The translations under genes were made by a program, and so were the position numbers. 64,000 nucleotides of DNA from Cyanidioschyzon merolae (Eukaryota), in NCBI GenBank assembly GCA_000091205.1, contig AP006495.2. One strand, written 5' to 3'. Of this stretch, positions 4,656-64,000 are shown in pieces; within the stretch, counting starts at the first letter, position 1; the number at the start of each line of letters is the position of its first letter. The notes under the pieces were generated by a model. The model was not told where the DNA came from. It ran no database searches and saw nothing but the letters and a program-made list of their open reading frames with translations.

Positions 4656-7446
4656 TAAAACGCTAAAGAAACATGCAAATGAAGAATGAGCGTTAAAAGG
4701 AGGCTCTTTGAGATCAACGGCTTCATCAGGGCGATGCGGATGTGAACGGGACAGATTGCGCGCCGCAAACGCGTGGCGGGCGTACGATGCAGGAGGAGGC
4801 GATGCGCGCTGTGGTAGCGCCTTCGACGAACGATGAGCGCTCGGGTAATTGGATGGGTACCCCGTTATTTGAGAGGACGTTTGCGTGGATCAGGGATCCG
4901 AGGTCCCCGGAGGGATAGTGGCACTCGGGTAGGCTTCGATCACGCTGTACCCGAGATTCAAGTTCCGTGACCTATACTTTTCTCGAACGTACTGGTTATT
5001 TCGCACGTTCTATCGTTTGCCAAGTGCCTGCCTTGCTGCACCCGCTCTAGCACCTGTTCCGCTGGTGTGGTTGCGTCACGGAGACAGAGCGGACATCGCA
5101 TAGCGTTGGGGGCATCGGTTCGAGGTACGGTTCACTGGTCCCAGATTCGGGACGCACTGGCTTTATGGGAGCGTGGGAACTGCCCAGGCAGACGCACGGC
5201 CTGCGAGAGCGCAAGGCGACCTGCTGGGAGACCACTGCAAGCAAAACGACGCCCAGACGCATCGCAACCGCTCCTAGTCTCAGGATGGACTGCGTTCCGG
5301 GCGAGCTGCTGAGGTCTCGCCTCTGCACCCGGCAGTACAACGGTGCACAGAGTGCAAGCCCGGTAGACTCGTCCTGGTCGTGGGGCCTTCCGCTTAGAAG
5401 GCAAACTTTCACAACAAACGAGAGAACTTCCACCTTTCAACGCGTAACGTGAATCTGGAAAGAAACTGTTGCCGAGTTGGTCGTTCGTTGTTCGTTTCTG
5501 GGCTTTATCGTTGCTGCGGTTTGACGCGCAACCGGCATGGGATAGCTGCGATGGTGCAGTTGCAGGTGCGGTGCACTCGCCCGACACCCTAGGCAAGTGA
5601 ACGCGTAGCATTGTGAGGATCTCTCCGTCCAAGCCTTGAGATTTGTTTTCGAATATTTGTTAGATGTATATTACTGACATTATGAGTGCGGTGAGAAGAG
5701 CTTATGGATTCATGCGTAGTTTAAGGACTCTGGATCGTGGTTTCGGAGTGGATGTCTCAGCTCGGTGCCGTTGGAATGCTTCCTAGAACCGGAATCAACA
5801 TGATTCATGACGGAAACGAAAAAGGGCCCCTACATAATCGATATGAGTATCCATTTCATATAGACAAGGCTTGGCGCTTCTCCTTTTGCTCGTGTGTAGC
5901 ATGCTCAAGTTACGCTGGCTTCGCACTTCCCATTTTTCTATGTCAGAGCGACTCGTGGGCGTAGCGATTCGCGCTCTTGGGCTAATATGGAACAAAACCA
6001 GAAGGCTTCGGTGGACGGCTCGTTCCAAAGCTCATGCCGATCGTCTACTCAGCTCGCGACGTCAAATAATCGATTTCCCTCGGAAAAACATATCCTTATC
6101 TCTTGGTGGCCATTGTTAGAATCGAATTCGTTACCAGCGTGATAATTTTCGCGGGATGTGCGCCTAGAGGTTCCGGCCTCTTCTGTTTGTATGGAAAAGC
6201 GTCTCGGGTTTGGTCGACAGTTATCTGAGCGCTCGCGTCCGGGAGAGAGCGCTTCACCACTTTGCACGAATGGGGCAAAGACGACTCGAAAGTTCTCGAC
6301 TTTTCCCGGACTGTAGTTTTCTTCAGGTACTTTTTTTGATTATGGACAACATCGCGTTCAAGAAAATTTCCCACCAAATAGGGCAACCTGCGCTTGCAGC
6401 GGATGGCGTACTCTTCAGGCGAATCGCTCAGAAGAAGCCCATCATCATAGGAACGGCACCGGGCACGGAATCGGAGCGCAGCATCGAGGTGAGGCTTCTA
6501 CACCTGTCAAGCGTGAGCACCGAGCAATGAAGCGAGCGTTCACGCGTCAAAGGCCGACTCTCGGAGAACGAGGAGGTGCAATGGACACGTGAGAACACCC
6601 GATCGAAGTTACGTGTCGCCGCCACGAATGGTGTACCGAGGCTTTATACCAGGTGGATGATGATTGCAAGGGAAACGTTGATCACGGCTTCTGTCCGTGC
6701 ATGAAATGCGTGACCAATAGCACGAGGTAGCGAACTCGGGACTTGAACGCTTCGACTGCTGCCAACGGTACCCTAGAGAACGTATACACCAGTGTACTGA
6801 ATGTCTTGATAAGGGAAAGAAAGAGGAAACAGTCACAAATAAAGCCCGCAAACCCCGGAGTTCATGACAGTGCAAAGAGTCCCAAACATTGTCCTGTGTG
6901 TGTGAGTGTGCCCGAGCTCGAGGGCTCTTTTCGTTTTATTCTCGCTTGGATGCAATTCGCATTGCTGTCACAACGGTGGCGCATGCGTGACGCCTACGTG
7001 TCCATAGCAATGCGTGCTGGTGCATGGACCCGTGCCACGCACGCACTCGATCTGTGCGTGCACATGCGGCGCACTGAAGCGCAAGACTTGCTGAGCGATC
7101 ATTCGCGCTGCCCGATGCACTGCACTGCACTGCACTTCACTACATGATGCATTCGCGTTTGGCGCGGGACCAGCATCGACTGGTGCTTCACATGACGCAC
7201 GTGTCCATTCAACAGCGTAGACGCGTTGCTGCTGTTACGACTGCTTCTGCAGAGCCGTCGGGGTTATGGATCGCTCGCTGGCGGCGTCGCCGGAAGCAGC
7301 GCGCTGTGATCGCCGGGCGATACACGGCGCCAGCCGCGTGCGTACGATGGACGCGCGTTCCCGCTCATGCGGTTCCTGCGCAGGCCATGCAGCTGTACGT
7401 ATAGCACCTCTTCTCCCAAAGTACCTGGAGTTCGGCGTCAACCTTC

Positions 7447-13348: not shown

Positions 13349-16014
13349 GCAATACTAGAGGCAAAATTTAGCGCCTTGCGCCGCCTCCACGGCGACGCGT
13401 GCAACAAGTTACCCCCTGTGGTGGTCCAGTGAAAGCACGAATAACCTGGAGGCGTTTTCGTGTTTGGGTACAATCATCCGCGCGGCGACCGTGTGCGCCT
13501 CATGATCGACGCCGTCGTCGGCGCCATCGCCGGTGCCGCGCCCCCAGGCGATGATGCGCGTGCGCGCCTGGCCCTGCAGTGGCGCGGGAGGCGTTCTGTC
13601 GAGGCCGCTGCCCCGATGCCCTCCGACTGAGCGGCAGCGCGAGCGCAGGCGCAGCGCGAATCGTACGCGACGTCGATGCTGGATATGCGTGGATGAGCGC
13701 TCCAGTTGTTCGGATGTGTACATCGTAAAGTTCGGGTCTTTTCTAGACATCTTCAACAACGGCAGTGTTTCAGGGATTTTACGACCACCGATTTCTTTCA
13801 TTCTCTTTTATTTCTGGATTTACAGGAATTGCACGTTCCTGTTTATCCTGCTTCTTTGCGCATCGTTGCAGGATGGTGATGGCAGCACGCACGACCCGAT
13901 TGGGCGGCTTCCGGGTGTTGTTCACGCATTCCATGGAACGGACGGTGGATGCGCTGTACTCGCCGCCTGCCGTGTTCATCTTCTTTGTGTGCAGCCTCGG
14001 TACGCATTTTACTTCTGTGATACTTTGCTGCGGTCAGGTGTAACCGTATACCTATTGCAAAATCGGATTCGAGGACCGCCCTGCGGTGCGTAAACGACTG
14101 TTTCATTGCTCGGCGCATGCTTCTGGTGGATACAGTAGCTGTGCTCGATACCCATCACCGCTTCCGTGCCAGGTGCCGTACCCGCAGGATCACGGGCTGC
14201 TTCTGGGCGATTACCTCCGCGAGCAGTTTATCAGCTGCACACGCAAGCGCGTGCTATTTCATTGGATAGGGGATTTTTGGAAAGTGATTTGTCGTAGGGT
14301 GAAACGAGTGCCAGAAGGGGAGTCCGGGCTGAAGAACAAGTCGAGCGACTTATCCGTTTAGGCTCCATTCGAGCCAACTGATGACGTATTCGTCATGGGA
14401 ACAGGTCGCCGCGTTGACTCATGTCGGAGTCCAAGACCCTCTTCTGTCTAAACGGAAGAGACGGGAGTGCATGGAGTTTATGCTTTGGGAGGCGTTGAAC
14501 TGGCGCAGAATGCCGCTTGCCTTCCAATGACGTTGTGAGGAGGATTTGCCTTTCGAACGGAATAGATTGTCTAACATAAAAAATGCAGTGAAGCTTCAAC
14601 ATGGGCTTGTGAACAAGTTGTCGGGAGACGACGTCGAGCCCTATTCCTCGTCAAATCAGCGGCGCGAATTCCTGCGCCCACGAGTTGCCGTGAAACACGA
14701 CAATCGAACACTTGGACAGTGCACGATAGCTGCATAAAACAGGTATAGAATCGAGAAGCGTAGAGACTTGTATGTATGAGTTGGGACATGATTTCGGCTA
14801 TTTTTCATGCATGTATTCGATTGCGTCGTAAGAGTCACTCCAGAAACTCGAACGAGAATCCCAAAACTGCATATGCATCCATAAGCCCTTGTTGTTGAAC
14901 CTTACGCATTCAGGCTGCACATCAAAAAAAATTTCGAGCGCAATCGAACCGCATGAACAGAGCGAGCAGTTCAGTTTTCAGTTTTCATCTGACTCGGATG
15001 TAGGAGGCTCGTTCACCGCAACCCCCGAAACTGTGGCCGAGTGCCTTCTAGGCGCTGTTTTTCGGTGATCATGGTCAAGTGCAGAAGCCGTTCGTCAGCA
15101 ACTGCGGCGAGCCGAAGCGCGCGTTGTCTCTAGATCGCCCGGGCGATATTCCCATGGCCGAAAAACTCGACACGAAAAGGCAGGCGGGTGCAGCGCCTGC
15201 CCCAGCAGGACAGCGTCACGCAAAACAACAACCGCAGGAGTTTGGTACTCGAGAATCGAACATATGGCGATGTATTCCAGTCTGGAGCATTTGGAAAGGA
15301 CACCCTTCGGTGACGCTTCGCTGCAGGCAATCGAGGTGCCGCTGCCTTGAACGACACCTACTCAGGCCTTTTCATATGAATATGAGGATCTGATGCCAGT
15401 GTGGTGCGACTCAGGCGATCCACGGTCTCCGAGGCGACCGCGTGACATCGCAAACAGCAGCAGCAGCAGCAGCAGACAGCTTGTATTGCACGCTCACCCT
15501 TCTGGTACAAAGTGGAAGTATTGGAACCACAGTCCGCTTTTGTGGATTACCCAAAGACAATTGGCTCAATGCCTATAAGCTTACGCTCTACAGCACAGCA
15601 GCAGTAGCAGCAGTAACATGTCAGAGACTGGTCGTTGCATGGGTATAGCAGTACTCGGGCGCAGCGCGCGCATGTCGAGGTCATGAACAGGAGTTGGCGC
15701 ACGAAACACCACGATGCATTCTTATACAGTTTTGTCACAAAAGATCTATTAACGCGGTGCCGCCGTACGTTGCGATCGCTACGCAGGCGCCGTCGCGGGC
15801 AACACGTCGCCGCGCTCGCTGTCCACAGCAGCAGCGCACCGACGGCGTAGCGCGTCGACGACGAGTCCGATGCATCGGATGCGGTGTACGCGCCGCCTCT
15901 ACCCCCGATGCTACCTTCTAGCAACGGGTAGAGGCCGCGAAACGCTTGTAGCGACCTGTCGTCCGCTACAGCCTGAAGCGTAACACCTGAGCTCTGAGAA
16001 ACACGAGGAGGCTT

Positions 16015-45515: not shown

Positions 45516-47464
45516 GAGGCTTTGCTGCTCTGCAGTGCACAGGTGGCTGCCCGAGTTCGCGTTCGGAACGGTCGCTGCGGCCGCGTTGCTTCGAGAACCC
45601 CAGAACGAACGGTGCTGAAGGCCCAGTGCCTGGTACAGGAACGCTGGGGTGTCCTTTTGTTCTGAGCAGCTGATCGGTGTTGCGTGATGGTACGAATGCT
45701 CAGGTAGGCTTCAAGTATGCATGTTTTGAACAAGCGTCGTTGAAGCGGCCTACAATAGTGAGCAGCGCAAGTTTCCGACGTAAAGGGCTCTTTCTGTTGG
45801 GCGGGTGCTGTTGCGAAAAGGACGTATCAGTTGGGACACTCTCAGCGTTCGGATTGTGTTGTTGCGAGGGATGTAAGGATGAAGCAGCGGTATAATGGTG
45901 TTTCGGTAGTAGTAAGGTGCTACATTCGAAGCAGGACAAAGCTAGTGAAGCCGTGTCGCGAGGAACGTCCGTTTTCACCAGGAGGATCGGTGCTCTACCC
46001 TACGAAGCGTTTGCATGAACTGTAGATCAGACGGCCACCAAAACCGAAGCATGCTGTCCGTAAAATGACGCTGAAATGATTGCAGGTCGACCACGTGGCA
46101 CGAATGGAAGCAGCACGGAATACAGAAGGACGCAACGCGTTGGATCTCTGTTCGACCTCCACAGCTGCCTCGTTGATTGTTCGTACGGTATCAACGGAAG
46201 CGACAAACAACTCGGATGACACTACACATCAGATCCGGAGGACATACCAGCACATATAGACCTGAACTTGAACGACACCTGTGCAGTGCCAACGTCAGAG
46301 ACTTGCAGCAAAAGAGGCGAGTACAAGACGCTTTGTCTCAATTGTGTATGGATATAACGAGGAAAGCGTCGACTTCCGCCGACGCATGAAATGCAAACAA
46401 CGCGTCCAGAAGCAAATGACATTGAATTGTTCTGCTGCATGAAGCACCGCACTTTTATCGTTTGCATAGCCTGCTTGTTGAGCTGCTTATGTCCGCGATA
46501 ATCACTGAGATGTAACTGTGTCAGAACCAATTCGGAAGCTTCTGCTTGGGTAACGCGGGCGTAGACGCTAGCATTTTCGGTTTCTTCATGCTGTCACCAA
46601 CAGCAGCCATGCGGGCTTTCCCCCGCGAAGCCAAGTCCGAGTCCCAGATACTTTTCCATGGAAACAGCAGGGACGGAGGCATCTGAAAGCATTTGCCGTC
46701 AGCGGTACCTTCCTGGGGTCGAATGATACTTCTTCGAATACTGCTTACAGAGTAGAATTCGGTTTTCGAATGGAATCGAATCTTGGACATGAGGTTCAGT
46801 GTATTTCGGCATGAGCTTGTGAGTAAGCCGTCAAGGGACGATATCTAGAATATTGAATGTCGACTATCCAGAGGCGTGAGCTGCTGTTTCCACCACTTAC
46901 CTCGAACAAGAAAGATCGAAAACTCGCAGATTGCGTGTTTTGAGCAGGCTACACGTAAGAAAGGAGAAGCTTGGAAGTTTCTATATTTGAGCAGGATGAT
47001 GATGTCAGTTACTTTACGAAACCCTGTTCAACGACTCTACGAATCATCTTGATTCAGGTGTCGCAACGAATTCCAGCGGCAAAACTTCGAAGGAGCCCAT
47101 TAAAAAAGACGCCCGATAATCCTGAATGTGCCTATGAATCCGTAAGCTCCCCTCTCCACTCTTCCATTGTCGATGCTGTGCAACTAAAATCTGGTCGGAA
47201 GAAAATGCATACAAGTGAAGAAAGCGAGTAGTCCAGTGTTCGGGATTAAACTGACGCCAGTGCCGTTGATGAGGCAGGCACTTACGCTGCCTATCCTCCT
47301 GTGCCTCTATATCTCTATTTATCTAACCATGCGTCTATGGACCCATCGTGAATTGAGTGCTTCGATCGATAAACAGTGCAATGGAATCGTAGAAGAACGT
47401 AACTGTTCACATATTGCCCCTGGAAAACCGCTTCCAGTCCATAGGTTTGACACTCCAGTCTCTT

Positions 47465-50040: not shown

Positions 50041-50513
50041 CCGCCGCAGTTACATCGCAACGCATCATGCGTTCCCGATCATCGATCCGCATACATGGGG
50101 TCTGCCTCGTACACGCCCTGACCAGCTACGAGTTGACTGCACGAAGAACCATTCAGGTCGGTACCACAGAGCAGCCATTTTCCCAAGTTCCGCTGGAACC
50201 TCCCTTTACCGCACTCAAAATGCCGAAGCTCCTGTTTTGTCTCGCTGACGCATTGGAACGGAAAGCGCTTGTACGCATCTGGTGCATCAATCATCGTTCA
50301 TCGCGGCTGATGCTACCAAGTCACTTTCCTAAACCGGGGCTGACCGCACTCAAAAGCTACCTTACCTGTGAGATTCTGCAGAAATGCATGGAACGGGACC
50401 AGATCACGGCTCTGTTGCCGTCCCTACACATATACGATAGCTGACGCTTTGCTTGTCACTGACAAAGGTTGCGCGTCATCATCTCCCATTCCGCACTCGT
50501 CAAGCAGCGAAAA

Positions 50514-51275
50514 CTAAATATACAACAGCTGACGCTTCGCGAGTAACTGGCGAAGATTGGGCATCCTAATTTCCCAGTCCGCCCTGGTGAAGCAACCAAA
50601 ACGTTCAGCAGCCAGCAGCAACGCTTCCAGCGTCGCCGGACTAGGTCCGTCGTCATCCTCGACTGCGAGGAGTGCCAGCACCGGTATCCGCAGCCAACAA
50701 CCTGCTGCTAGCAGTGCAGCTGTGATTCCACCAATGCAACCAGTCTCTACCCAGCGTAGCTGGATACGGTTCTGCTGCGTGCCCTCATCACTCCACAGAG
50801 GGCGAAGCAACGGGTCATCGATCTGCACGAGGTCATTCGCCAGGACCAAGACTTGCGAAGCGTTTTCCACGTTTGATAGTGATGGATACGACGTACTCGT
50901 CAAAATCGCTGCTGCTTGGTGCGGTTCGATGGTTCGCAAGGCAACCACCAGGTGCTGCGGGCGTGTCGCTGCCAGCAAGGAAGTGGCCACCGTCGGAGCT
51001 CGTTCGAGTGGCAGCCTGTGAATGTTGACGACCTGCCGCTCCAGGTTCCCCGTACGCTTTACACGCAACGTTTGCGCGGCCGGTCCGTCCAACACAAAGA
51101 TCAAGCGTTGCTGAGGGTCCACGAGGTTCCAGAGAGCGGCTTCCTCCCCGCTGAGGGAAGCGGTGGCGGCTGCTGCTGCCTCCTCATCTGACTCGTACCC
51201 AGAATCCGTCACTGGGTCAGCAAAGTCCTGCGATAACTGCTCACTTGGATCAACTGACAACGTATGACGAAACAT
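50514..51275 (-). CDS. Proteasome assembly chaperone 2 (PAC2/PSMG2)-like protein, 253 aa
   Basis: The C-terminal pattern GCIGGITAALLAAGCWLRIPVLALLAVEDDDGPSPATLEALLLAAERFG...W..P.W..L resembles PSMG2 (GGGITKTLY...MAVLLKFVSEGDNIPDALGLVEYL...W.IPSSW). This is a moderate-strength match from memory. Confidence 0.5.
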   Translation of the reverse strand: MFRHTLSVDPSEQLSQDFADPVTDSGYESDEEAAAAATASLSGEEAALWNLVDPQQRLIFVLDGPAAQTLRVKRTGNLERQVVNIHRLPLERAPTVATSLLAATRPQHLVVALRTIEPHQAAAILTSTSYPSLSNVENASQVLVLANDLVQIDDPLLRPLWSDEGTQQNRIQLRWVETGCIGGITAALLAAGCWLRIPVLALLAVEDDDGPSPATLEALLLAAERFGCFTRADWEIRMPNLRQLLAKRQLLYI

Positions 51276-51580
51276 GTGCCGCTTTTGTTCTCATCTGACA
51301 ACCAGAGAGCGGTCCTGCTGGCGACGAGCACCGACTTGCAATGCAGTGCAGCCAGCAACGTGTTGAAAGAGCACGAACGCGGGCATCAAAGCATCGCAGC
51401 CCAGTCTTGAGCTGCGAGTCGCATGACGCGACGCGGATGATAGACGCCATCGAGAAGATACCAAGGAAGCGAGGGTACGAGTTGTTTCGTCGATATGTTG
51501 AGAGGCATCGCTGTCGTTCGAGGAAGACGTCCGTTCGCCATGTAGACGGTACCAATTTCAGGTATGTATAGACGCATAGC

Positions 51581-53117
51581 AGACATACATGGAACGGGCC
51601 CACAGCGCTCAATCGGGCGTACACACGAAATGCGGAGCATCTCGTATTTGTCATGAACAAATGACCCGGTAGGCCTCTTCCGACACAGCGTACTTGCTCT
51701 CGTTCGCACCTCGGGATTTTTGGACACGCCAGTCTCTCTGGACCCCGCAGTTCCACGGTCTCCCGTCGAAGGATGCTCGTGGCAGCGCCCGAGTCCCGAT
51801 CTCACAGCTGCCGGCTGTTGTCGATGCAGTTCATCCACCGGCGAGACTTGCAATCCATGCTTCGCTTGCCAGCTTCGTCTTCTTCGAATACAGCGCCGAT
51901 GCGCTTTGCGCAGCGGTCGCACTCGACTGCTGTTGTCGGGTATCCCACATGTCCAGCGCACACCCGTCACCGAGTGCAGCGCTGTGCGGCGTGAAGGACT
52001 CCTCCAGTGCTCGGTGCACGCCCCTGACGAGTACAGAAGGCGTCGCTCGATGCCGTGCTCCGTTGCCGCGCCCGGTACCGTACACTGTCGTCACGAACTT
52101 GTTCAGGGCGATCCCCTCGGCGAGTACGCTGTCCGCGGCAGACGCAAGCGAAGGCTTCTGCATTACGCAGAGGATCTGTGAAACGCGGTGCTGTCCGTGA
52201 TAGAGCACGGAGCAGACGGAAGCTTCACACTCGAGAAGTCGTCGACATACTCCGAGCCGTTTCCGATCCCTGGTTGCAAAGCGGTGACACAGGCTCCGCT
52301 GGAAGCGAGTGCCGGGAGAGCTGGTATCCGAGTCCGAGACCGAGCACCCATGGACGGGCAGGAGCCGAGCACCCGTGGACGGGCAGGAGCCGAGCACCCA
52401 TGGACGGGCAGGAGCCGAGCACCCATGGACGGGCAGGAGCCGAGCACCCGTGGACGGGCAGGAGCCGAGCACCCGTGGACGGGCAGGAGCCGAGCACCCA
52501 TGGACGGGCAGGAGCCGAGCACCCATGGACGTCCGTGCCCTGTGGGGTACCGTGCTTGCGTCGAACGCCGTCTCAGCGGTGTTAGCAAGGAGCCGGGCGA
52601 TATGTCTCCTCGGCCGAGTTCGACGCTCTGACTTGCGAAGTACGGTGAGCGATCGGCTCGAGCTTGTGAGCAAGTCGTTAACGGACGGCGTCGACGAACG
52701 TTCCGAAAGCGTCCAGGTGCTTGAGGTGGCGCGCCCACTGGGTTGCCTCGGAATAGCAAGATCGAAAACCTGAAGATTGGATACTCGGAGCGGGCTGCAA
52801 GTGAAGATAGAAGAAGAGAGGCGTCTAGCGCGTATGCATACAACGGTAGTATCGATTCGTTTACGATGCCTTGTTCGCGGGTGTCCCGAATCGTCTCGAT
52901 TCTGGTGACGTAACGAGTTGCAGCGGCACATCGTTGAACGTGTCGCTCCGCGAGAAAGAAGAACCACCGACCTAGAATCCTGAGAGTGTATACGAATCCG
53001 TAAGCATTTTATTGGTGCTCCATGAAAGTCAGCGCTTTGCATCTGAACAAGTTCAGAGGGAAATCTAAATGCAGGAACAGGGTGTGCAGTTCTTTTGTAG
53101 ACTTATATCTGACGCGG
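51581..53117. repeat. Direct repeat copy 1, about 1.54 kb, carrying an internal 25-bp VNTR (7 full plus 1 partial units)
   Basis: About 99% identical to 58614-60185 in the same orientation. Identical ORF artefacts appear in both copies (for example MTGVRWTCG...). Confidence 0.9.
52342..52537. repeat. 25-bp VNTR inside direct repeat copy 1, 7 full units plus 1 truncated unit
   Basis: Unit GAGCACCC(A/G)TGGACGGGCAGGAGCC; the pattern of the A/G variant across units is A G A A G G A A. Confidence 0.9.
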
Positions 53118-53718
53118 GTGTCTGCAACTGCCAACGCAGGCATTTACGTCCGAAGCTGTGGGTCTCAATATGGTTTTCCAGTAGCGATGACTGCCAGGGT
53201 TGGTTTGCGGTGCAAACCAAGGTTCCTGAGCTTAACTTGAATGCTTCTAGCGAGCGCACTGGTTTATTGTTGCTCTCGCGAGAGGCTGGCGCGCCTTGTA
53301 TGAACCTCAAACGCTCTATGTTTCCGACCAACGGCACTTGTCTCAGAACCTGCTGATTACCTCGGCACCGCTTCCCGTACACAAGCCTTCAAAGCACATT
53401 ATTAAAGGATTCATGATAGATGCTTTTCCAGGAAACTGTCGTGCGGTTGTCTACCCGATGTTGGAGCAATAGCTAGTGCCCCCATTGTATGAGCGTGAAG
53501 CGCGCTCAGCAGGTTCCTATGCGTTGCGCGTCACCTTTCCTTGCCTGTATGATAGCGCCGCCCCTACATATGTTCCTACGCTGGGTGCACGGAGTATTCT
53601 ATATGACCGAGCGAGCGTGGAGCCAAAGCGCAATTGGCAATCGAAGATGTTCAGCATAGCGAGTACCCGAAGTCGCCATACAGTGACCTGTCTATAGAAA
53701 ACACAACTTGAAGGACAG

Positions 53719-55335
53719 CTATCGACCACGACGTCGCCTTTCGGGACGTCGGCGACTGGTGGAGCGCTTTCTTACTTTTGGCGGCCGCTGCGTGAAGTCA
53801 TCATCATCATCGTCGTCGTCGTGGTCGTCGTGGTCGTCGTCTACATTGTTACCGTCTTCGACGTTGTCATCAGCATCGTCGTCATGGATCCTACCAGGGA
53901 CGTCTTCACTGCCTATTGCCTCGTCTTCCGCGGGTTCATTTCCATCACTGATCCTTTCTGTTGGCAACCGCAGTGAAACTGGGCGGCCTTCATGCTGCTC
54001 CGGCTCTTGAATGACGCCCTGGTCATGGAAACCAGTCTGCATGCCCGATACGGGACGCTGCTCCACTGACGCTTCGGGGCCTTCGTCGGGTCTTCCGGGA
54101 AACCACCGCCCTTCCCGCGGAACATTTTCGGGCTCCACAGAAGCACTCGTCTTTGTGAGCTGGCCGCCCTCATTTTTGCCAGAGGAAGCTCGAGGACCAG
54201 GACGCAGAGTGTCCGTTCCCGCAGAGCCGTTATCCTCATCCAGATGATTCCCTGTTGCTGCAGCATTCCTGGGGAGCTGCTCCGAGCTCTCGTTCACGGT
54301 TCGGGCGCTGGCCTGGCGGAGTCGCACTGCGGCGACGCGGGAACTTTGCCGTCCCCCACCACCCCAACATTTCTCCAGATGCTGCGCATACCGAGCGGCT
54401 GAAACAGAACTTTTGCAATGAAAACAGACGAGGACACCCTCACGGGCTGCTTGCCGAGCCTGCGTACATCCATTCAAAGGCGTTTCTACGGTATCTTCAT
54501 CCAACAGGCTAGTCATGCGAAGCGCTTCGAAGAGCGGACTGTGGATGCGTGCTCGATCATTGGTGCGTAGAATGCGCGAGAAGTACTCCTCTCGAAAAGC
54601 TTCCTCACAAGCTTCACGGAAGATCGCATCCGTCAAGAGGTTGTACACGTGCAGCACACAGGAGAGCTGCTCTAGCATGGACAGCCATGCAGGCCTATCA
54701 GGTTGTGGAGCCCGGCTTTGGTCGGCATCCGCAACACTTTCCCAAGTGCTCGCAGGTGCGTTCCCAGCACTGGCGAGGTCCTGCTTCTGCTTCTCGTCTG
54801 AATTGGTGACCAGCGGCATCGGATGCGGCTCAGTCACCTCTTCACAATCCATGATGGCAGAGCTTGTCCAGGGCTTTCGTTGTTTGCAGGCTCGGAGCAG
54901 CTGCTGCAGCAAGTGCAGGTCCTGCACGCGCTCTTTTTCAACGGAGGATACGCGCCGCGGCGACTGGTCGACGGCCTCGTCTTCACGGCGGCTACCATCT
55001 CGAGACTGTGTCGTCACACCGAGTCCACCAGGAGTGTGGTCCTCTTCGACGGAAACGCCTCCGTGCTTGTTCGTAGGATGCTGCTTGTGTCGGCGGGTGC
55101 GCCGTTCTGGCACTACCGGCGGCTCCGAGGCCGGCGTCTCGTCGGAGCGCCCGGGACTGGATGCCTCAGCGAGGACCGAGGAGGTATCTGCTGAGGGCGA
55201 AGGCGAGCGCGTCTCATCCTTGGCTGATTGAGCGCTAGCTGCGTCGCTCTCTAGCAGCAAACGGCCTCGTTTTGGGCGAACGCGAGAACCACGACTTAGG
55301 CCCGTTGCACGGGCACCCAATCTACCCCGCGGCAT
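53719..55335 (-). CDS. Sgf11/ATXN7L3-type zinc-finger protein (a SAGA deubiquitinase-module-like subunit) with acidic poly-Asp and basic terminal tails, 538 aa
   Basis: VCFHCKSSVSAARYAQHLEKCWGGGGRQSSR matches the Sgf11-type zinc finger C-x2-C-x(~11)-HLEKC-x-G (compare [29 protein letters not shown]). C-terminal tract DDDDHDDHDDDDDDDD. Confidence 0.6.
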   Translation of the reverse strand: MPRGRLGARATGLSRGSRVRPKRGRLLLESDAASAQSAKDETRSPSPSADTSSVLAEASSPGRSDETPASEPPVVPERRTRRHKQHPTNKHGGVSVEEDHTPGGLGVTTQSRDGSRREDEAVDQSPRRVSSVEKERVQDLHLLQQLLRACKQRKPWTSSAIMDCEEVTEPHPMPLVTNSDEKQKQDLASAGNAPASTWESVADADQSRAPQPDRPAWLSMLEQLSCVLHVYNLLTDAIFREACEEAFREEYFSRILRTNDRARIHSPLFEALRMTSLLDEDTVETPLNGCTQARQAAREGVLVCFHCKSSVSAARYAQHLEKCWGGGGRQSSRVAAVRLRQASARTVNESSEQLPRNAAATGNHLDEDNGSAGTDTLRPGPRASSGKNEGGQLTKTSASVEPENVPREGRWFPGRPDEGPEASVEQRPVSGMQTGFHDQGVIQEPEQHEGRPVSLRLPTERISDGNEPAEDEAIGSEDVPGRIHDDDADDNVEDGNNVDDDHDDHDDDDDDDDFTQRPPKVRKRSTSRRRPERRRRGR

Positions 55336-56035
55336 GCTCGCAGTTGTTCATAAGACAGAAGGAGTTCCCCGTATAAACGCCCCAAAACCGTTGTTCAAGA
55401 AAATACAAGAGCGTTCTTTGCGCTGAGGTAGCACGAATGTGCCTAGTCCGGCGAGAGGCGCGCTGCCTGCGGGAACCTCTGACCTCAAGCCAATAGCAGC
55501 AGCAGCAGCTGGGGCTTTACGAGACACCTGGGTCTTTCGTGTACAGGAGTGTCCAACGTCCAGATCAAAGATTCGCTTCTTATTCGTATACCGGGCGACT
55601 CGTCCGCGAACTTTCTCAAACGCAAAGCTTGAGAGTACGCGTCAAGTCGCAGGGCTAAGTGCCGGAGCGCCCGGCAGAAAGCGCTTGTACCTCGAGCCAC
55701 AGACCGGTTGCCACTCCCTTTCTTTTCGCTTGACCAGCGACTATTCCTCAGCACCGACCTGCAGATCCTGAAATCACTTATACCCAAACGCAAGGTGCGC
55801 AAGAAAAGTGCTCTCCACAGTGGAGCTGCGGTACAGCCAAAGAGCTATGGAAGCGGTATGGACGGGCGCGTCCTGCTCTGAGGCAGTCGAGCAGAGCCAC
55901 GGGCTCTACAACGTGCACCTGTCTGAACGTTGATATCCGCTTTTCCGGAGCTGTGTTGTTACTGCGTCCTTCTGGTGCCATTAAACGCTTGTAAACCAGC
56001 GAGGAGACGTTGTTCTCGCTTCGAAACTCTTTACT
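55336..56035. promoter_or_regulatory. Putative bidirectional promoter, about 700 bp, shared by the divergently transcribed Sgf11-like gene and ELP3
   Basis: Head-to-head gene arrangement with no intervening ORF. Inferred from arrangement only. Confidence 0.35.
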
Positions 56036-57784
56036 ATGAGTACAAGTCAAGTCATCGACTACATCATTCGCAAGCTCATTGAAGCCTACGAAAACGACGA
56101 GGCCGTTTCGCTGGATCGGTTAAAACTAGAAGCTGCAAAGCATTTCGGTGTTAATGGAGTACCAAAGCTCATGGACATAGTGGCTGCTGTGCCAGACGAA
56201 TACCGCGACGTACTCGTTCCACAGCTGCGCGTCAAGCCGGTACGCTCGTCGTCGGGAATCATCATCGTTGCCGTGATGTCGAAGCCGCACCGTTGCCCTC
56301 ACATCTACACGACCGGCAGCGTCTGTATTTACTGTCCAGGGGGTCCCGACTCGTCTTTCCCGTACTCTGCTCAGTCCTATACTGGGTTAGAGCCGACGAG
56401 TATGCGAGCGATTAGGGCGCGTTACGATCCCTACCTTCAGGTACGCTCTAGGATCGATCAGTTGCAATCGCTTGGTCACGCAGCTGACAAAGTGGAGTTT
56501 ATCATTCAAGGCGGTACGTTCATGAGTTTGCCTGCAGACTACCGGGATTGGTTTATTCGTAACCTTCACGACGCGCTCTCGGGACACGCGTCCATGAGTG
56601 TTGCCGAGGCGGTCCGCTACGGCGAGCAGAGCGCCAGATACAAGTGCATAGGGCTCACCATAGAGACTCGTCCAGACTTTTGCCAACGAACACATCTAGA
56701 CGCGATGCTGCAATACGGTTGCACCCGTCTAGAAATAGGGGTGCAGAGCGTCTACGAGGATATCGCGAGACTGACCAATCGGGGTCACACGGTTGAGGCC
56801 GTCATTCGCTGCTTCCAGCTCGCCAAGGATGCCGGTTACAAAGTTGTCGCCCACCTGATGCCAAACCTCCCGGATATGGATCGAGAGCGTGATGTCGAGT
56901 GCTTCCGGGAGTTCTTCGAGAACCCGGCCTTTCGCGCCGATGGTCTGAAAATATATCCGACGCTGATCCTGGCAAACACGGGCCTCTATGAGCTGTGGCG
57001 AGCGGGAAAATATCGCAGTATGCCACCTCCTGAGCTTGTTGATCACGTTGCGGAGCTCTTGTCTCTAGTACCACCATGGGTACGAGTCTACCGCGTCCAG
57101 CGTGATATTCCGATGCCGCTGGTCACCAGCGGTGTACAGTTTGGCAACCTTCGGGAACTGGTGTTAGCACGAATGCGCGACCTGGGACTACGTTGTCGAG
57201 ACGTGCGGACTCGTGAAGTTGGTATCCGGGAAATCCATGAAGCAGTTCGACCGCAATCTATTGAACTTGTTCGGCGCGATTATGTGGCGAATGGTAGCTG
57301 GGAGACCTTCTTGGCCTACGAAGATCCGGTACGGGATATTTTGGTAGCACTGCTTCGACTGCGGCGCCTCAGCAAAGAGACAACGCATCGGATGGAACTG
57401 CGTATTGAAGACACAGCTGCCGGGGATGATTCGAGCAATAGTGGCGTTGGGCAAGGCACCGGTTGCTCTGTGGTGCGCGAGCTCCACGTCTACGGGACAG
57501 TGGTGCCCGTTCACGAACGAGACCCGACTCGATTTCAGCATCGGGGCTTCGGTACGCTCCTCATGGAAGAAGCGGAGCGGATCGCTCGCGAAGAGCATCG
57601 CAGCTGCAAGCTCGCGGTTATCTCTGGCATTGGCACTCGAAACTATTATCGCAAACTGGGTTACACACTCGAAGGGCCCTATATGGTGAAGTACTTGGCA
57701 GCGGGTACTGCGAAGGTCTCGCCCAGCGGTATGTCCAGTTGTATGGGCGAACAGATACGCGCAGATATGGCTGTTTCCGTGTAG
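56036..57784 (+). CDS. ELP3: Elongator complex protein 3 (radical-SAM domain plus GNAT acetyltransferase domain), 582 aa
   Basis: Highly conserved Elp3 blocks: [15 protein letters not shown]...[40 protein letters not shown], the radical-SAM core, and the C-terminal GNAT ([20 protein letters not shown]...LGY). Confidence 0.92.
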
Positions 57785-58613
57785 GTTCCTCTATCTGCTG
57801 GCTGTGGAGCGTGGAGATAACCCCAGGCCATGCCAGACGACAGCTTCCGTTCACCAAATCAGCGTGGATGCTGGGAAGGCTCCACGCTACATCTACGGTC
57901 AAGCGGTGCACCTTGGATGCATCCAAGGTGGTATTAGACAATAGTATCCCATCATTAGCTCCGAGCATATCCAGGGAAGCTTTGAGCGCAGCATGCGAAG
58001 CCCAGCTCCTGCGTTGTAAAGGCGCTGCTCGCTAGAAACATTTTGTTTCCAGCTTCTCATGCAGATACAGGTGAAACTGGTTTTCTAAATGGTGTCATCC
58101 ATCGGCAGTGAGTGACTGAAGCACACATGACTCCTGTGCCGACTGGACGAGGTCAAGCGCTCGGTACCTATTGAGCTGGGGACGACGCATCTGCCTGGAT
58201 TCATTTTCTGCAGAACCGCGATGCTGTGATGAGGCGTTCCCATCGAGACAAGGACATCGTGCACGGCAGGCGCCTAGCTTCTTCTGCTTCCAATATAGCG
58301 CATCTCCGCACATTGCATCGCTGGAATATAAACTGCTCATCTAGAATTTATGCGGCAAAACTTGCAACGCCCAGTTCTCCGCGTCAGAACATGTACGTTT
58401 TGCGTGCCTCATCGCAACGCTCACGAAAAGTACCATGTTCAGCAGTCGCTGCAGAGGCCTGCCCGCAGTGCGCCCTCCGCCCTAGTTCGGTAAGTGGCTG
58501 CATTCGAGCGAGTCGTCATCTGTGCCGAAACCGCATGAAGGATGCGCAGACCCTACGAGAAGTTTTTCTATCCAATGGAACGCATGAAAACATGCGCCCT
58601 CGACCCCCATATC

Positions 58614-60185
58614 AGACATACATGGAACGGGCCCACAGCGCTCAATCGGGCGTACACACGAAATGCGGAGCATCTCGTATTTGTCATGAACAAATGACCC
58701 GGTAGGCCTCTTCCGACACAGCGTACTTGCTCTCGTTCGCACCTCGGGATTTTTGGACACGCCAGTCTCTCTGGACCCCGCAGTTCCACGGTCTCCCGTC
58801 GAAGGATGCTCGTGGCAGCGCCCGAGTCCCGATCTCACAGCTGCCGGCTGTTGTCGATGCAGTTCATCCACAGGCGAGACTTGCAATCCATGCTTCGCTT
58901 GCCAGCTTCGTCTTCTTCGAATACAGCGCCGATGCGCTTTGCGCAGCGGTCGCACTCGACTGCTGTTGACGGGTACGCCACATGTCCAGCGCACACCCGT
59001 CACCGAGTGCAGCGCTGTGCGGCGTGAAGGACTCCTCCAGTGCTCGGTGCACGCCCCTGACGAGTACAGAAGGCGTCGCTCGATGCCGTGCTCCGTTGCC
59101 GCGCCCGGTACCGTACACTGTCGTCACGAACTTGTTCAGGGCGATCCCCTCGGCGAGTACGCTGTCCGCGGCAGACGCAAGCGAAGGCTTCTGCATTACG
59201 CAGAGGATCTGTGAAACGCGGTGCTGTCCGTGATAGAGCACGGAGCAGACGGAAGCTTCACACTCGAGAAGTCGTCGACATACTCCGAGCCGTTTCCGAT
59301 CCCTGGTTGCAAAGCGGTGACACAGGCTCCGCTGGAAGCGAGTGCCGGGAGAGCTGGTATCCGAGTCCGAGACCGAGCACCCATGGACGGGCAGGAGCCG
59401 AGCACCCGTGGACGGGCAGGAGCCGAGCACCCGTGGACGGGCAGGAGCCGAGCACCCGTGGACGGGCAGGAGCCGAGCACCCGTGGACGGGCAGGAGCCG
59501 AGCACCCGTGGACGGGCAGGAGCCGAGCACCCATGGACGGGCAGGAGCCGAGCACCCATGGACGGGCAGGAGCCGAGCACCCCTGGACGTCCGTGCCCTG
59601 TGGGGTACCGTGCTTGCGTCGAACGCCGTCTCAGCGGTGTTAGCAAGGAGCCGGGCGATATGTCTCCTCGGCCGAGTTCGACGCTCTGACTTGCGAAGTA
59701 CGGTGAGCGATCGGCTCGAGCTTGTGAGCAAGTCGTTAACGGACGGCGTCGACGAACGTTCCGAAAGCGTCCAGGTGCTTGAGGTGGCGCGCCCACTGGG
59801 TTGCCTCGGAATAGCAAGGTCGAAAACCTGAAGATTGGATACTCGGAGCGGGCTGCAAGTGAAGATAGAAGAAGAGAGGCGTCTAGCGCGTATGCATACA
59901 ACGGTAGTATCGATTCGTTTACGATGCCTTGTTCGCGGGTGTCCCGAATCGTCTCGATTCTGGTGACGTAACGAGTTGCAGCGGCACATCGTTGAACGTG
60001 TCGCTCCGCGAGAAAGAAGAACCACCGACCTAGAATCCTGAGAGTGTATACGAATCCGTAAGCATTTTATTGGTGCTCCATGAAAGTCAGCGCTTTGCAT
60101 CTGAACAAGTTCAGAGGGAAATCTAAATGCAGGAACAGGGTGTGCAGTTCTTTTGTAGACTTATATCTGACGCGGATGCAGGACT
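58614..60185. repeat. Direct repeat copy 2, about 1.57 kb, carrying the 25-bp VNTR with 8 full plus 1 partial units
   Basis: See copy 1. Confidence 0.9.
59365..59587. repeat. 25-bp VNTR inside direct repeat copy 2, 8 full units plus 1 truncated unit (one unit more than copy 1)
   Basis: Variant pattern across units is A G G G G G A A (C). Confidence 0.9.
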
Positions 60186-60191
60186 GTGTGA

Positions 60192-61012
60192 ACACTGAGC
60201 AATACAAAAAAACGTTCAACGGCCATGGAGGGTATACAGACATCCTCCCTCGCAGACGCCGCCCAGCCTTCTTCGACTGGCTCCCCTGCTATCGGCTTCA
60301 GTTTCTCCTTGTACATTTCGTGTTGGAAAAGTTGCCCCACGAAGTTCGCACGTGTCAGCTTCCCCGGTCTCGTCTTCAGCACCACTCAACACCTGATATC
60401 CTTGACGGCGTTGAAGTCTCGGTTCACGAACTCCACGCGTTTTAGTCTCTCGTGGAGCTCATTCAGGCGAGGCTTCTTCGAACTCGCGCCCCCTGCGGCA
60501 TGTGCTGCTCTATCAGCTGTCCGAGGTTTTCCAACGCCGAACCGCTCCGTTGCCTTCTCTCAACATCAGCCTTCGGAAGTGTAAACCCCAGATCAGCCTG
60601 TGTTTTGCTCGTTCGGAACACAGCTATCGGTACCGCGACCAAACGCTGCGAGCTCTCCTTGTACGCGCGCGCCAAAAGAACCAATATTCTCCCTTTTTGG
60701 GGCAAGCAGTGCCCTGACCAGTTTCCCGCTAAAAGCTTTTGACCCTCATCCTCGTTTAAGGTGCTCAGCTATCTCAAGAAATCGACACTTGTACGCTTCT
60801 TCCTTTCGTACAAACACATACGGTGGCGGGGTGGGGGCCTGTCCGCCGATGCAGACCGCCTTCCACAGCTCGTCGGTATGAGTGTTTTGAACTTTCCTGT
60901 ACTCACGAACAGCTTCAAACTCCGCTCCTCGAAACGTGACTTTCTTCATCGCATCCCGGTACTTATTTAGTGCCGGTTGTTCAGTCGTAACTTGTTTCGA
61001 CGGCTCCGTCAT
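60192..61012 (-). mobile_element. Copy (c) of the dispersed element family, the longest copy. It starts within about 10-20 bp of the end of direct repeat copy 2. Its ORF relics are frameshifted, including an intact 88-aa ORF at 60746..61012
   Basis: Minus-strand ORFs MTEPSKQVTTEQPALNKYRDAMKKVTFRGAEFEAVREYRKV... / ..RILVLLARAYKESSQRLVAVP.. / MVLKTRPGKLTRANFVGQLFQHEMYKEKLKPI.. are colinear with (a) and (b). The 5' 150 bp aligns to the ends of (a) and (b). Confidence 0.6.
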
Positions 61013-64000
61013 ACCCGACTATCGGTAGTTTCAAGCTCGCTAGACCTCCAACGGATGCATCTCATTCTGGCGCAGGTTGTCGCCAATACTATTTTTCCAT
61101 GGACAAAACGTTTACGTAGGTCAGTGTTCTCCGATTATGCGCATTTTCCTCTCTTTTTGTGGGTTTTTCAGTGCACGCTGAAGTATCCATCAAAACGCCC
61201 TACCTCCAAGTTGCATCACCCATACTTTTTCTCGGATATTCTGGTCGTTTCACACTTTGTATCGTGTGTGCCTAGTGCCTGCGGAAAGCGACAGCAATGG
61301 CGCCTATAGCGCCGGTGCGGTCGCTGTACGGAGACAATGGCGTTGTCGTAGTACAGAGGGCGTTGGCTCCAGGGTCGCCAATGCGATCTGCCAAATATGG
61401 AGGTGCGTTTATCGAGCGTGCTGTATGGAAAAAAAGGACAGAAACGAAACACGAACTAGCAACGAGATAACAACTTCGTTCCTGCCTCTCCGGTAAACCT
61501 TAAAATGGGGAAAAGGTTTACGTATTGGCGAAAGGTCCCGCGAGCCAGACGACTCTACCGGGCTTGCGCTCCGTGCTTCTCCCAGTAACGGATGGTGTTG
61601 TGAGATCTAAGCAGCTCGTCCGAAACGGAGTTTATTCTGAGACCCGGAGCGAGCATGCTGCATCTGGGCCTCGGCCTGGTTTCGGTAAACTCTTATGAAA
61701 TCGCTTCGCGCTGTCGCGAGCAGAAGGTCTGTCTGCGCAGCTTGCAGGCTCGCAGCATAGTTATGGATCCCGATTCCATATCGTATGAAACACACCTCGA
61801 GCGGACGCCGTCTGTGGTATGGCAATGCCGCCCTGTCTCCATGAGGCATCCGCTCCAGCTGCATAGGCGCAAAGGCGGACCCTCAAAGCAGGCACTCCGC
61901 GGCCGATAGAACGTACAAAAAGACGAGTACATCCCAGAACAGTTGATGGAACTTGGATGCAGGGTGCAGCAGCATGATCGACACTTTCCCGAAAGCCAAT
62001 ATCGGTTCCGCACTCTGGGATCCATGGTCAATGGAAACGATTTGTTATTGGAAGAAAATCCGTCCCACGCTTGGGCGCAGCGATGGACATGGTATCCTTC
62101 CTCCCTGGGTCCACGCTGACGACAACGTCGTTCACCTGTACTCCATACATCGCGGGGCCCGCCTCTTTCTTTTCATGCTTCGTCATAGGCGACAGCGAAG
62201 ACAGAATAGGACGAGCCACCCTCAAGCGCCAGCAGTGAACGCACATGGATATTCCGTATCGCGTTCGATCGTTCACGTGAATGCCTTTTTCTTTCTCGTG
62301 TCGAGCCGTTCCGAAACGAGGACATTCTTTCAATACGTTTCCCGCTTTTCGCCTGTGAACTCCGTGCTGCTTACATCGGACCCGGACTTGTCTCCTTCAT
62401 GATGCCGTAAAGGACTCTGGAGTTGATGGTCCCAAAGTGTGACTTGATGTTGGATGACGCAGCGACGTCAAAGCGCTTCTCCAGAAGCGCAACCTTCCGT
62501 TTCACCGAATCTGCATCATTATTTTCAACAATATCCATATTCGTCTTGCGTTCGAGCTCTCGGTTCGAAAACACGAAACAGAGCAGAATAAGGGGATAAC
62601 ATCTTTTTTCATATCCGATGCCTTTTCTGCATGGTTGACCAGCCCCAGAACCGCGCAATGCTCTTGAATAGCTGTATGGATCACAGAATCGTCATTCGTG
62701 ATACTGTGAGACGTATCGTCGTTGACGGAATCAGTTTTGCCTTCATCCCGACGATCGTTCATGATGCCATTGATACTGGCCCATATCTCTTCTTGGGAGA
62801 GAGGCCTGGTTAGAGCGCAAAGCCGGAGCGTATCATGAAGTGTTTGAGGTTCATGGTGAATACGGTTCTTCAGATTCGTGAGGTACTTCGTCGCCCCGTG
62901 TCCGCAAATACGCGAGTCAAGCCTGTATCGAGAACCGCTGGAGCGGTATTCGACGTAATCTTCGTGGAGGCGTGTACTCCCTCATTTCTCCTCAGCGTTT
63001 CCACTGTTCAAACCATAAGGTGGCCGATAAAGGTCGAGCTGACAAAGTCTCCCGGAATATCAACTGTCTGGCTGTGCTTGACGTCGTCCAGCATCTCCTT
63101 CACCAAATGCTGTAGTCATGAAGAAATCTTTTTCATACTCGTGCAGCAGGACGCGAAACGGTTTCTGATAGCCTCCCGCAAATTTTGCATGTAGGAACCC
63201 TTGATAAGCCCATGAAGATAGACTTTCACCACCCTCTCGCCGTATTGTTGTCTTTCGAATTGCTTTTGGTGTCTGGCCTCCTGCCTCAGCTTCTTCGTCG
63301 TCTCCTGTTACTCTGGGTTCGACACTGTTTTCCGTATTTTTACGGCAGCAGGCGACACCAGGTCTCTAGGATCCTCGACTTGAACGAACATACTTTTACA
63401 TTGGATTTTTATCTCTTCAAAATCAACGCACTTCTTTATGCCCATGGATGACGAACTTCCTGGAGGGTCTAGGACTTGACGAAGGAATACATCATGTGCT
63501 CCTGGTGTATTTCGGTTTGCTGAACGCTTCAGCGATTCACCCAGTGGTGCGATCATCATGTCTCACGATAGATAACGTTCCTTCGATGTGCTGAACCATG
63601 GAGAGTACGGAGGAATGAAGCGTAGCTCTATCCCGATAGAATCGGTAACAACTCCAACGCAAGAGAAAGGTGAAATGAAAGATACCCCAATGGAAGGAGC
63701 GCTGCCAGGCTTCAGGGGAAATTCTTCAATGATTCGACGAACTATGTGCTGTTGTATGAGCCTTCTCTATGCGCGAAACTGAGACCTTCAAACGAATCCA
63801 ATGCAGCTAGAACGAATAAGCGCAAGGTTCTCTCCAGTCTCAATTTTACATACAACGGGCACCCTGCTCCGCGAATACCCATATACGCTCCGATCGTTTC
63901 GTCCGAAGTGAGTCTCATCGACTGAAAAAGCAAAATAAAGTCCCTTTGTTTCGTACTGATCGGGACGTTAACGGAACCTGTCATTCTGATTTCGGTGGAA

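Follow-up and report, generated by a model that had tools for sequence, protein, structure and literature searches.

Young copies of a dispersed non-coding module flank the Sgf11-like and ELP3 genes of Cyanidioschyzon merolae and probably evolve in concert by gene conversion

Kilobase-scale direct repeats of more than 99% identity that flank unique genes have been described in humans as DP-LCRs, which undergo non-allelic gene conversion and NAHR (PMC3759717). Their paralogues are closer within a genome than their orthologues are between genomes, their haplotypes are mosaic, and the intervening segment is potentially deleted or duplicated (PMC3759717). In all these respects they resemble a pair of repeats, here termed module R, found in the window analysed in this study, a 64-kb stretch of chromosome 13 of Cyanidioschyzon merolae 10D. 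The R pair differs in size, its repeats measuring only 1.5 kb with 5.5 kb between them, and in belonging to a haploid genome of 16.5 Mb. Its unit is not an arbitrary block but a whole member of an old dispersed family, and no deletion or duplication allele has been observed. As a low-copy repeat pair, it is of a known kind.

A second parallel is found in C. merolae itself, in which homologous recombination is highly efficient and engineered pop-out cassettes for marker recycling are excised via direct-repeat recombination, the intrachromosomal homologous recombination between the repeats having been shown experimentally (PMC13353863). Direct repeats flank a segment in both cases and in the same organism, but the R pair is natural, flanks the Sgf11-like and ELP3 genes, and its recombination is read from sequence patterns; its excision products would probably be lost because two host genes are flanked.

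The “novel interspersed repetitive element” of C. merolae (Nozaki et al. 2007, PMC1955436), named “WSV repeat” in PMC5405695, averages about 3.2 kb, is dispersed on all chromosomes and is transcribed (PMC1955436). It is defined by a truncated ORF weakly similar to WSV486 of WSSV, with published BLASTX E-values of 1e-5 to 4e-2 (PMC1955436), a level that would not be significant in the 5.8 billion-sequence database used here for the 403-aa ORF of R. By description, R is likewise C. merolae-specific, intergenic, truncated or non-functional as coding sequence and without an established mode of transposition, and the ~3.4 kb made up by R together with modules S and T beside copy 2 comes near the reported 3.2-kb average. 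R alone, however, measures 1.35 kb, and five copies of R occur per 64 kb versus about one expected from 253 WSV repeats per genome. Given this difference in size and density, R may be a separate, unnamed family, for example an “unknown” EDTA element, the comparison with the WSV repeat being one by description. Finally, LTR retrotransposons and solo-LTR pairs share with the R pair LTR-length direct repeats around a few kilobases, but the R pair bears none of their hallmarks and encloses ancestral host genes.

The repeat pair and the family of module R

Alignment of the window against itself by blastn paired 51575-53120 with 58608-60178 in direct orientation, with 9 mismatches and one 25-bp gap, amounting to an aligned-base identity of 1537/1546 (99.4%). 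The direct repeats of ~99% identity noticed in a preliminary description of this DNA are real, the coordinates given there (51581-53117 and 58614-60185) being 3-7 bp off. Copy 1 occupies the intergenic spacer that separates CMM091C from the Sgf11-like gene, and copy 2 starts 823 bp after the ELP3 stop codon.

51575..53120, plus strand: R copy 1, 1,546 bp (self-blastn and family HMM)
58608..60178, plus strand: R copy 2, 1,571 bp (self-blastn)
13676..15000, plus strand: ancient full-length R copy (nhmmer E 2.5e-39 and 5e-21; family HMM; terminus alignment)
5585..6946, minus strand: ancient full-length R copy, inverted (nhmmer E 6.5e-45 and 3.2e-20; family HMM; terminus alignment)
46627..47262, plus strand: ancient half copy of R (nhmmer E 1.7e-33; family HMM; terminus alignment)
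60197..60497, plus strand: module S, a separate dispersed module, starting 19 bp after copy 2
31192-31482 (plus) and 42868-42570 (minus): other copies of module S (nhmmer E 1.2e-34 and 1.1e-29)

All four repeat/unique junctions were found again in metagenome contigs of close relatives, which are independent assemblies from many samples (both junctions of copy 1 in L006, L015 and L017; those of copy 2 in L003, L006 and L014), and the pair is therefore not an assembly artefact. A false duplication of a reference segment, for which nothing speaks beyond the general risk that repeats bring, has a practically negligible probability against these junctions and against the frequent breaking of short-read contigs inside R, as expected of a true repeat.

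R is a discrete, non-coding dispersed module of ~1.35 kb without its minisatellite, of which the pair represents two young copies. The family HMM located five copies in the 64-kb window, in intergenic spacers. Neither ancient full-length copy carries the minisatellite, the one at 13676-15000 having a single proto-unit only, and the half copy corresponds to the right-hand portion of R, which begins at the minisatellite site and runs to the right terminus. This terminus, ...CTGAC(G/T)CGGRTG, is present in 5/5 copies and similarity ends there, while the left ends agree to ~10 bp; as both ends are common to the copies, the high-identity tract is exactly one family unit. The supposition that the unit may occur only here was wrong, given the three ancient copies with the same terminus within the window, and on the question of whether other copies occur as pairs, these three turned out to be singletons. 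The old copies are ~55% identical overall, with no intermediates between them and the young pair. A 23-mer scan of metagenome DNA for other young copies, a weak test, returned four contigs, each of which belongs to one or other of these two sites. Within the window and this small scan, the pair comprises the only young copies seen of what is a Cyanidioschyzon-lineage module. Highly compact though this eukaryotic genome is, its intergenic spacers consist largely of decayed repeat modules.

On sequence criteria, R appears as a non-coding module. Its ORFs contain no Pfam domain, the protein homologues of the 403-aa ORF come only from the same locus (self clusters), substitutions show no codon periodicity, and the reading frame shifts with the minisatellite count. 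No tRNA was found in R, nor any Rfam family at threshold, the sole match reaching 22.9 bits where the gathering score is 64.5. The minus strand has fewer stops than most shuffles, the observed ORF length being reached in 7/500 of them, and may hold a decayed ORF; the old copies are full of stops (11-19 per frame).

Each young copy carries a 25-bp minisatellite of seven or eight full units plus a partial one, as had been noted before and is borne out by TRF and the unit strings.

52342..52530, plus strand: minisatellite of copy 1, 7 full units and a 14-bp partial unit
59375..59588, plus strand: minisatellite of copy 2, 8 full units and a 14-bp partial unit

TRF delimited the arrays as 52340-52531 (7.7 copies) and 59373-59589 (8.7 copies). 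The order of unit variants is AGAAGGA in copy 1 (partial unit A) and AGGGGGAA in copy 2 (partial unit C). Exact 25-bp units number 15 in the window, 15/15 of them inside the two arrays, where chance expectation is 0. Judging by the old copies and the strain differences, the minisatellite would have been born inside R, where “CCCATGGAC” motifs already recurred at a spacing of 25 bp, and its length may shift rapidly via slippage or unequal exchange.

Enclosed genes and the transposon readings

The interior between the repeats, 53121-58607 (5,487 bp), holds only two genes, and ORF coordinates and Pfam uphold the earlier reading of a divergent pair transcribed from a 700-bp spacer.

53719..55335, minus strand: Sgf11-domain protein CMM093C (BAM80968; exact protein look-up, Pfam PF08209)
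56036..57784, plus strand: ELP3 (BAM80969; PF23613/PF04055/PF16199, exact look-up, Cyanidiococcus synteny)
55336..56035, no strand: divergent spacer of 700 bp between the Sgf11 and ELP3 start codons (ORF coordinates), whose ORFs have no Pfam match

The order Pribosyltran-CMM090C-CMM091C-Sgf11-ELP3-357aa-AsnRS is kept in Cyanidiococcus yangmingshanensis, which has an ortholog of CMM093C in syntenic position, and gene order and orientation are also kept in a related lineage, again without a detectable repeat. The spacers measure 1,341 and 1,019 bp in Cyanidiococcus versus 2,443 and ~6,700 bp in 10D; spacers here are 2-6 times longer. Searching the Cyanidiococcus loci with the family profile at E<=10 detected no R. 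As gene order is kept there without R, the Sgf11-like and ELP3 genes are, to judge from synteny, ancestral host genes rather than captured ones. The proposal of a captured-gene composite element is refuted by the same order, short spacers and absence of a detectable repeat in C. yangmingshanensis; a composite or gene-capturing mobile element was rejected likewise, the enclosed genes not having been relocated with the repeats. In the empty-site comparison with Cyanidiococcus, intergenic DNA was not alignable and R was undetected, so that insertion boundaries or target-site duplications are not definable by this route.

The layout of ~1.5-kb direct repeats around 5.5 kb is indeed LTR-like and would suit an LTR retrotransposon or a composite element of LTR type with Sgf11 and ELP3 as captured genes. 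The repeats start with CATAG and finish with GGGTG/GGATG (CA...TG on the reverse strand), not TG...CA. The outer flanks of the pair read ...TAGACG on the left and CAGGAC... on the right, and no target-site duplication was found, the left flank ...GTATAGACG having no match in the right flank CAGGACTGT... There is no primer-binding site after copy 1, where TCTGCAACTGCCAACGC contains no TGG tRNA complement, and no polypurine tract before copy 2, where AAACATGCGCCCTCGACCCC is not purine-rich. Interior ORFs contain no gag or pol remnants (RT, IN, PR), only Sgf11 and ELP3, and ten spacer ORFs have no Pfam match at E<=0.1. Every LTR hallmark that the preliminary description had proposed to check (TG..CA termini, primer-binding or polypurine tract, target-site duplication, RT/IN) is hence absent, and its doubt about the LTR layout, given the intact host genes inside, is supported. 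With the genes at their ancestral syntenic position and no LTR retrotransposon found in the complete C. merolae genome (PMC1955436), an LTR origin is scarcely credible; termini, missing hallmarks and synteny already refute it. Two further classes were also rejected: a TIR DNA transposon (e.g. Mutator, CACTA), as R has neither terminal inverted repeats (8-nt seed) nor a target-site duplication, and a Helitron, as TC...CTRR ends occur on neither strand and the flanking bases are G/T and C/C.

Probable exchange between the two copies

Contigs L006-L009 of environmental relatives carry both copies at the same junctions as 10D, which shows the two-copy arrangement to be older than the split of 10D from these ~1% diverged relatives. 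When 10D was compared with L006 outside the minisatellite, the two copies of 10D were found to agree with each other while differing from the two agreeing copies of L006 at 12 sites, some of which are junction-anchored, 83 bp from the right end. Copy-specific across strains are just two positions, 51579 and 53118, each at most 5 bp from an end. Paralogues differ at 7 sites in 10D and 3 in L006 (0.2-0.5%), orthologues between the two at 15 sites (1.1%); that is, paralogues are closer within a genome than orthologues are between genomes, the duplication itself being shared. Mosaic patterns were seen as well: the TTC/ACG haplotype at 51936-51944 sits in copy 2 in 10D and in copy 1 in L010 and L015, and all four gametes occur at sites 51896 and 51936, a four-gamete violation. 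The number of minisatellite units ranges from 1+1 in some strains to 7+1/8+1 in 10D, and its length co-varies between the two copies of one genome.

The strain-specific sites in both copies and the co-varying minisatellite therefore argue for concerted evolution by gene conversion and contradict the claim that the copies have evolved independently since duplication. As the relatives are represented by metagenome assemblies, in which near-identical repeats may collapse or mix and minisatellites shorten, the argument is firmest on the finished 10D sequence and the junction-anchored sites. Since the split, the copies would have traded sequence by ectopic (non-allelic) gene conversion, as the site patterns suggest, and such conversion may have kept them ~99.4% identical while other family members decayed to ~55%. 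The pair is thus probably best regarded as young copies of the non-coding dispersed module R that flank the ancestral Sgf11/ELP3 genes and evolve in concert by gene conversion, one nearby R pair thereby avoiding decay. The second copy may stem either from transposition of R or from a copying event based on recombination.

Two independent recent insertions of an active R transposon would explain the identity by youth, with no need for conversion. The discrete termini common to dispersed copies would suit this explanation, as would the EDTA re-annotation of C. merolae, with 1,755 TE-like elements of which 40% are unclassified (bioRxiv 10.1101/2022.10.24.513474). It is nevertheless unlikely: both copies already stand at identical junctions in the ~1% diverged strains, paralogues differ less than orthologues and share the 12 strain-specific sites, neither a target-site duplication nor a terminal inverted repeat is present, the metagenome scan gave no further young copy, and the remaining family members stand at ~55% without intermediates. 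Still less probable is R as a functional gene, a long non-coding RNA or fast-evolving protein whose copies are kept alike by selection rather than conversion, although the gap in locus tags at CMM092, flanked by CMM091C and CMM093C, suggests an annotated non-protein feature in copy 1, C. merolae repeat elements are transcribed (Nozaki 2007, PMC1955436), and stop codons are few on the minus strand. R lacks an Rfam family at threshold, a Pfam match and a protein homologue, stops abound in the old copies, and purifying selection would not give strain-specific substitutions common to both copies. A literature search on locus tags CMM092 to CMM095 found no mention of them. The simple local duplication considered earlier would be a single segmental event that doubled anonymous intergenic DNA, its breakpoints arbitrary and its copies now drifting independently. 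It would accord with there being just two young copies known and no target-site duplications, yet it is very improbable: the duplicated tract starts and stops just where members of an older dispersed family do, the site patterns reveal exchange between the copies, and nhmmer E-values of 1e-20 to 1e-45 disfavour chance similarity as the source of the old copies.

Recombination potential of the locus

Among the alternatives originally put forward, that of a repeat pair with the capacity to recombine fits best. By its homology, the R pair may allow a 7-kb unit to be deleted or duplicated; deletion in a haploid would lose two genes and would presumably be selected against. Recombinant junctions, whether of deletion or duplication, were absent among ~30 contigs. 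Beyond window position 57997, contig L024 runs into meaningless A-rich sequence, which does not represent an alternative junction. The 7,019-bp MEGAHIT contig L023 has a 141-bp end overlap that gives a closed path of R plus interior, which is compatible with a circle or tandem but equally with the artefact that direct repeats give in assembly. There is only a slim chance that the pair acts as a natural recombination cassette, its 7-kb unit of R, Sgf11 and ELP3 being excised as a circle or amplified in tandem, or alternatively that R is an unclassified mobile-element type without target-site duplications or terminal inverted repeats. Were the cassette true, copy-number variation of two chromatin/translation regulators would be expected in hot-spring populations. 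The findings leave the current understanding of repeats and of the Sgf11 and ELP3 genes unchanged.

In practical terms, genetic engineering of C. merolae works through homologous recombination. With 1.5 kb of 99.4%-identical sequence present twice at a distance of 5.5 kb, targeting constructs could go astray, or pop-out deletions could arise, in the neighbourhood of CMM091C, Sgf11 and ELP3. Strains could be told apart by the minisatellite, whose size varies between them from 1+1 to 8+1 units.

The repeat pair and the genes it encloses

The direct repeats are a real but ordinary low-copy pair within a dispersed repeat family (module R), apparently homogenised by gene conversion and carrying what looks to be a fast-evolving minisatellite; in this verdict, both the LTR and the gene-capture readings are rejected.

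51575-53120, R copy 1
52340-52531, its 25-bp minisatellite array, 7.7 copies (Tandem Repeats Finder)
53719-55335, minus, Sgf11-domain ORF (PF08209), between the copies
56036-57784, plus, ELP3, between the copies
58608-60178, R copy 2
59373-59589, its 25-bp minisatellite array, 8.7 copies (Tandem Repeats Finder)
42867-45515, minus, CMM090C (exact protein look-up)
50514-51275, minus, CMM091C (exact protein look-up)

Alignment of the window against itself with blastn places the two copies in direct orientation with 9 mismatches and one 25-bp gap (99.4% identity, 1537/1546 aligned bases), separated by 5,487 bp in which the Sgf11-type gene (CMM093C) and ELP3 (BAM80969; both exact protein look-ups, C. 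merolae 10D chromosome 13) diverge from a 700-bp spacer. The minisatellite units read AGAAGGA in copy 1 and AGGGGGAA in copy 2, each followed by a partial unit, and the 25-bp unit is confined to these two arrays within the window (15 matches vs 0 expected). The preliminary description of the repeat pair, its minisatellite and the two enclosed genes was right within a few bases by blastn, Tandem Repeats Finder and ORF/Pfam analysis. Protein accessions run on without a break over the tag gap at CMM092, and the copy 1 annotation is therefore not a protein. Other tandem repeats lie at 1584-1951 (93-bp unit, 4.0 copies, 98% matching), overlapping a 224-aa ORF at 1435-2109(+), and at 18653-18872 (109-bp unit, 2.0 copies, 98% matching), directly preceding a 306-aa minus-strand ORF (18947-19867) and flanked by a ~510-bp direct repeat of 66% identity (17582-18090 and 19065-19574).

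An assembly artefact was rejected because all four repeat/unique junctions recur in ~30 metagenome contigs of hot-spring relatives at 98.9-99.7% identity; many short-read contigs end within R, as a true repeat would predict. One relative's contig, L024, departs at 6261-6532 from the reference at window position 57997, 213 bp past the ELP3 stop codon, into A-rich low-complexity sequence, and is probably chimeric or cDNA-derived there.

A discrete dispersed module

Using copy 2 as the query, nhmmer recovered three older copies in the window, with E-values of 1e-20 to 1e-45.

13666-15006, plus, ancient full-length R copy
6939-5613, minus, ancient full-length R copy
46667-47264, plus, half copy of R

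A profile built from the family returned the same five copies in the window and no others. The old copies share ~55% identity with the young pair overall (68-70% in the cores) and hold a single proto-unit at the minisatellite site, without which R measures ~1.35 kb. Since the right terminus ...CTGAC(G/T)CGGRTG is common to all five, with no similarity beyond, and the left ends coincide within ~10 bp, the 99.4% tract corresponds exactly to a single unit of a dispersed module with discrete ends. A 23-mer scan of the metagenome contigs matched four, all from the copy 1 or copy 2 sites, a weak indication that other young copies are absent. The second copy may have originated via transposition or via recombination. 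C. merolae harbours a 'WSV repeat' family of 253 copies averaging 3.2 kb (PMC1955436, PMC5405695), and in a subsequent EDTA annotation (bioRxiv 10.1101/2022.10.24.513474) 1,755 TE-like elements are recorded, 40% unclassified, among which R probably falls.

The LTR-like layout that had been remarked upon was rejected as an LTR element on termini, flanks, primer-binding site, purine tract and interior ORF content. The proposed check for TG...CA termini found none, the ends being CATAG...GG(G/A)TG, and there is no target-site duplication because the outer flanks of the pair mismatch. Neither a TGG primer-binding site after copy 1, a purine tract before copy 2, nor terminal inverted repeats of R were found, and Pfam matched none of ten ORFs from the three spacers between the repeats. 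The finished C. merolae genome was reported without any LTR retrotransposons (PMC1955436).

R itself looks non-coding. Its substitutions display no codon periodicity, its ORFs have no Pfam match or protein homologue found beyond this locus, and the frame of its long minus-strand ORF shifts with the minisatellite unit count. In copy 1, this 403-aa ORF (51831-53042(-); 423 codons stop to stop) is longer than in 500/500 dinucleotide shuffles; once the minisatellite is removed, the longest remaining ORF has 254 codons, a length reached by 7/500. The minus strand shows a modest stop-codon deficit (4 per frame in two frames vs 11-19 in the old copies), which, like the ORF, may be a compositional effect or an ORF remnant.

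Probable exchange between the copies

The relatives' contigs L006-L009, ~1% diverged from 10D, carry both copies at identical junctions. Counted outside the minisatellite, 12 sites agree between the copies within 10D and within L006 and differ between the strains, while only 51579 and 53118, 5 and 3 bp from the R ends, are copy-specific across strains; paralogs differ at 7 sites (10D) and 3 sites (L006), and orthologs at 15. At 51936-51944 the three-base haplotype of 10D reads TTC in copy 1 but ACG in copy 2, and ACG turns up in copy 1 of L010 and L015 as well; sites 51896 and 51936 display all four allele combinations. Minisatellite length co-varies between the copies.

Minisatellite units in 10D and relatives
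10D: 7+1 and 8+1
L006-L010: a single variant unit and a partial one, in every copy present
L016: 3+1
L015: about 5+1

The simplest reading of these sequence patterns is repeated non-allelic gene conversion. The main caveat, on the relatives' sequences, is that metagenome assemblers can merge near-identical repeats; collapse alone would not, however, give the finished 10D copies 12 common states unlike the relatives', and some informative sites are also anchored by unique flanks only 70-83 bp away. Homologous recombination is very efficient in C. merolae and excision between direct repeats has been demonstrated there (PMC13353863), in keeping with gene conversion.

None of the ~30 contigs showed a deletion or duplication junction. 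L023 (ENA ERZ27247235 k141_279964, 7,019 bp) runs from R position 1322 via the interior and copy 2 to R position 1462, its two ends sharing 141 bp, equal to the k-mer size, to give a closed path of R plus interior. Most probably the loop is a cycle in the assembly graph, as a de Bruijn assembler yields from direct repeats, and it proves nothing on DNA circles.

Ancestry of the gene pair and neighbouring modules

Cyanidiococcus yangmingshanensis, whose ELP3 is 88% identical, and a related lineage share the order Pribosyltran-CMM090C-CMM091C-Sgf11-ELP3-357aa-AsnRS and its orientations, and in their syntenic loci R was undetected, also with the family profile. The gene-capture element envisaged earlier is thereby refuted, and the Sgf11-like gene and ELP3 are ancestral. 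The CMM091C-Sgf11 spacer is 1,341 bp in Cyanidiococcus vs 2,443 bp in C. merolae, and that from ELP3 to the next gene 1,019 bp vs about 6.7 kb; spacers 45516-50513, 51276-53718 and 57785-64000+ are 2-6 times as long as their orthologues in C. yangmingshanensis, the excess being largely repeat modules. Given the conserved order, the shorter spacers and the lack of R in Cyanidiococcus, repeat modules have therefore inflated the C. merolae spacers.

60197-60497, module S
31192-31779, module S (nhmmer match 31192-31482)
42868-42266, module S (nhmmer match 42868-42570)
61528-62039 and 4878-5393, module T, inverted, 66% identical
28650-31176 and 47465-49991, second young pair, inverted, 2,527 bp

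Module S, its copies ~70% identical to one another, begins 19 bp past R copy 2 (nhmmer); its left end follows R copy 2 and the arm 28650-31176 at a distance of 16-19 bp, and in the third case comes directly after the CMM090C stop codon, a placement that suggests a nested or end-to-end arrangement of modules. At both its sites T lies to the right of an R copy, copy 2 in one case and the old 5585-6946 copy in the other, so the two modules may originally have belonged to a single larger element. The inverted pair (98.5% identical, 39 mismatches, arms 16.3 kb apart) encloses four minus-strand genes, CMM090C among them, and has no convincing ORF or Pfam match. The ortholog of arm 47465-49991 in the relatives' contig L017 has 23 mismatches to 10D arm 28650-31176, fewer than between the 10D arms, which hints at sequence exchange between these arms also.
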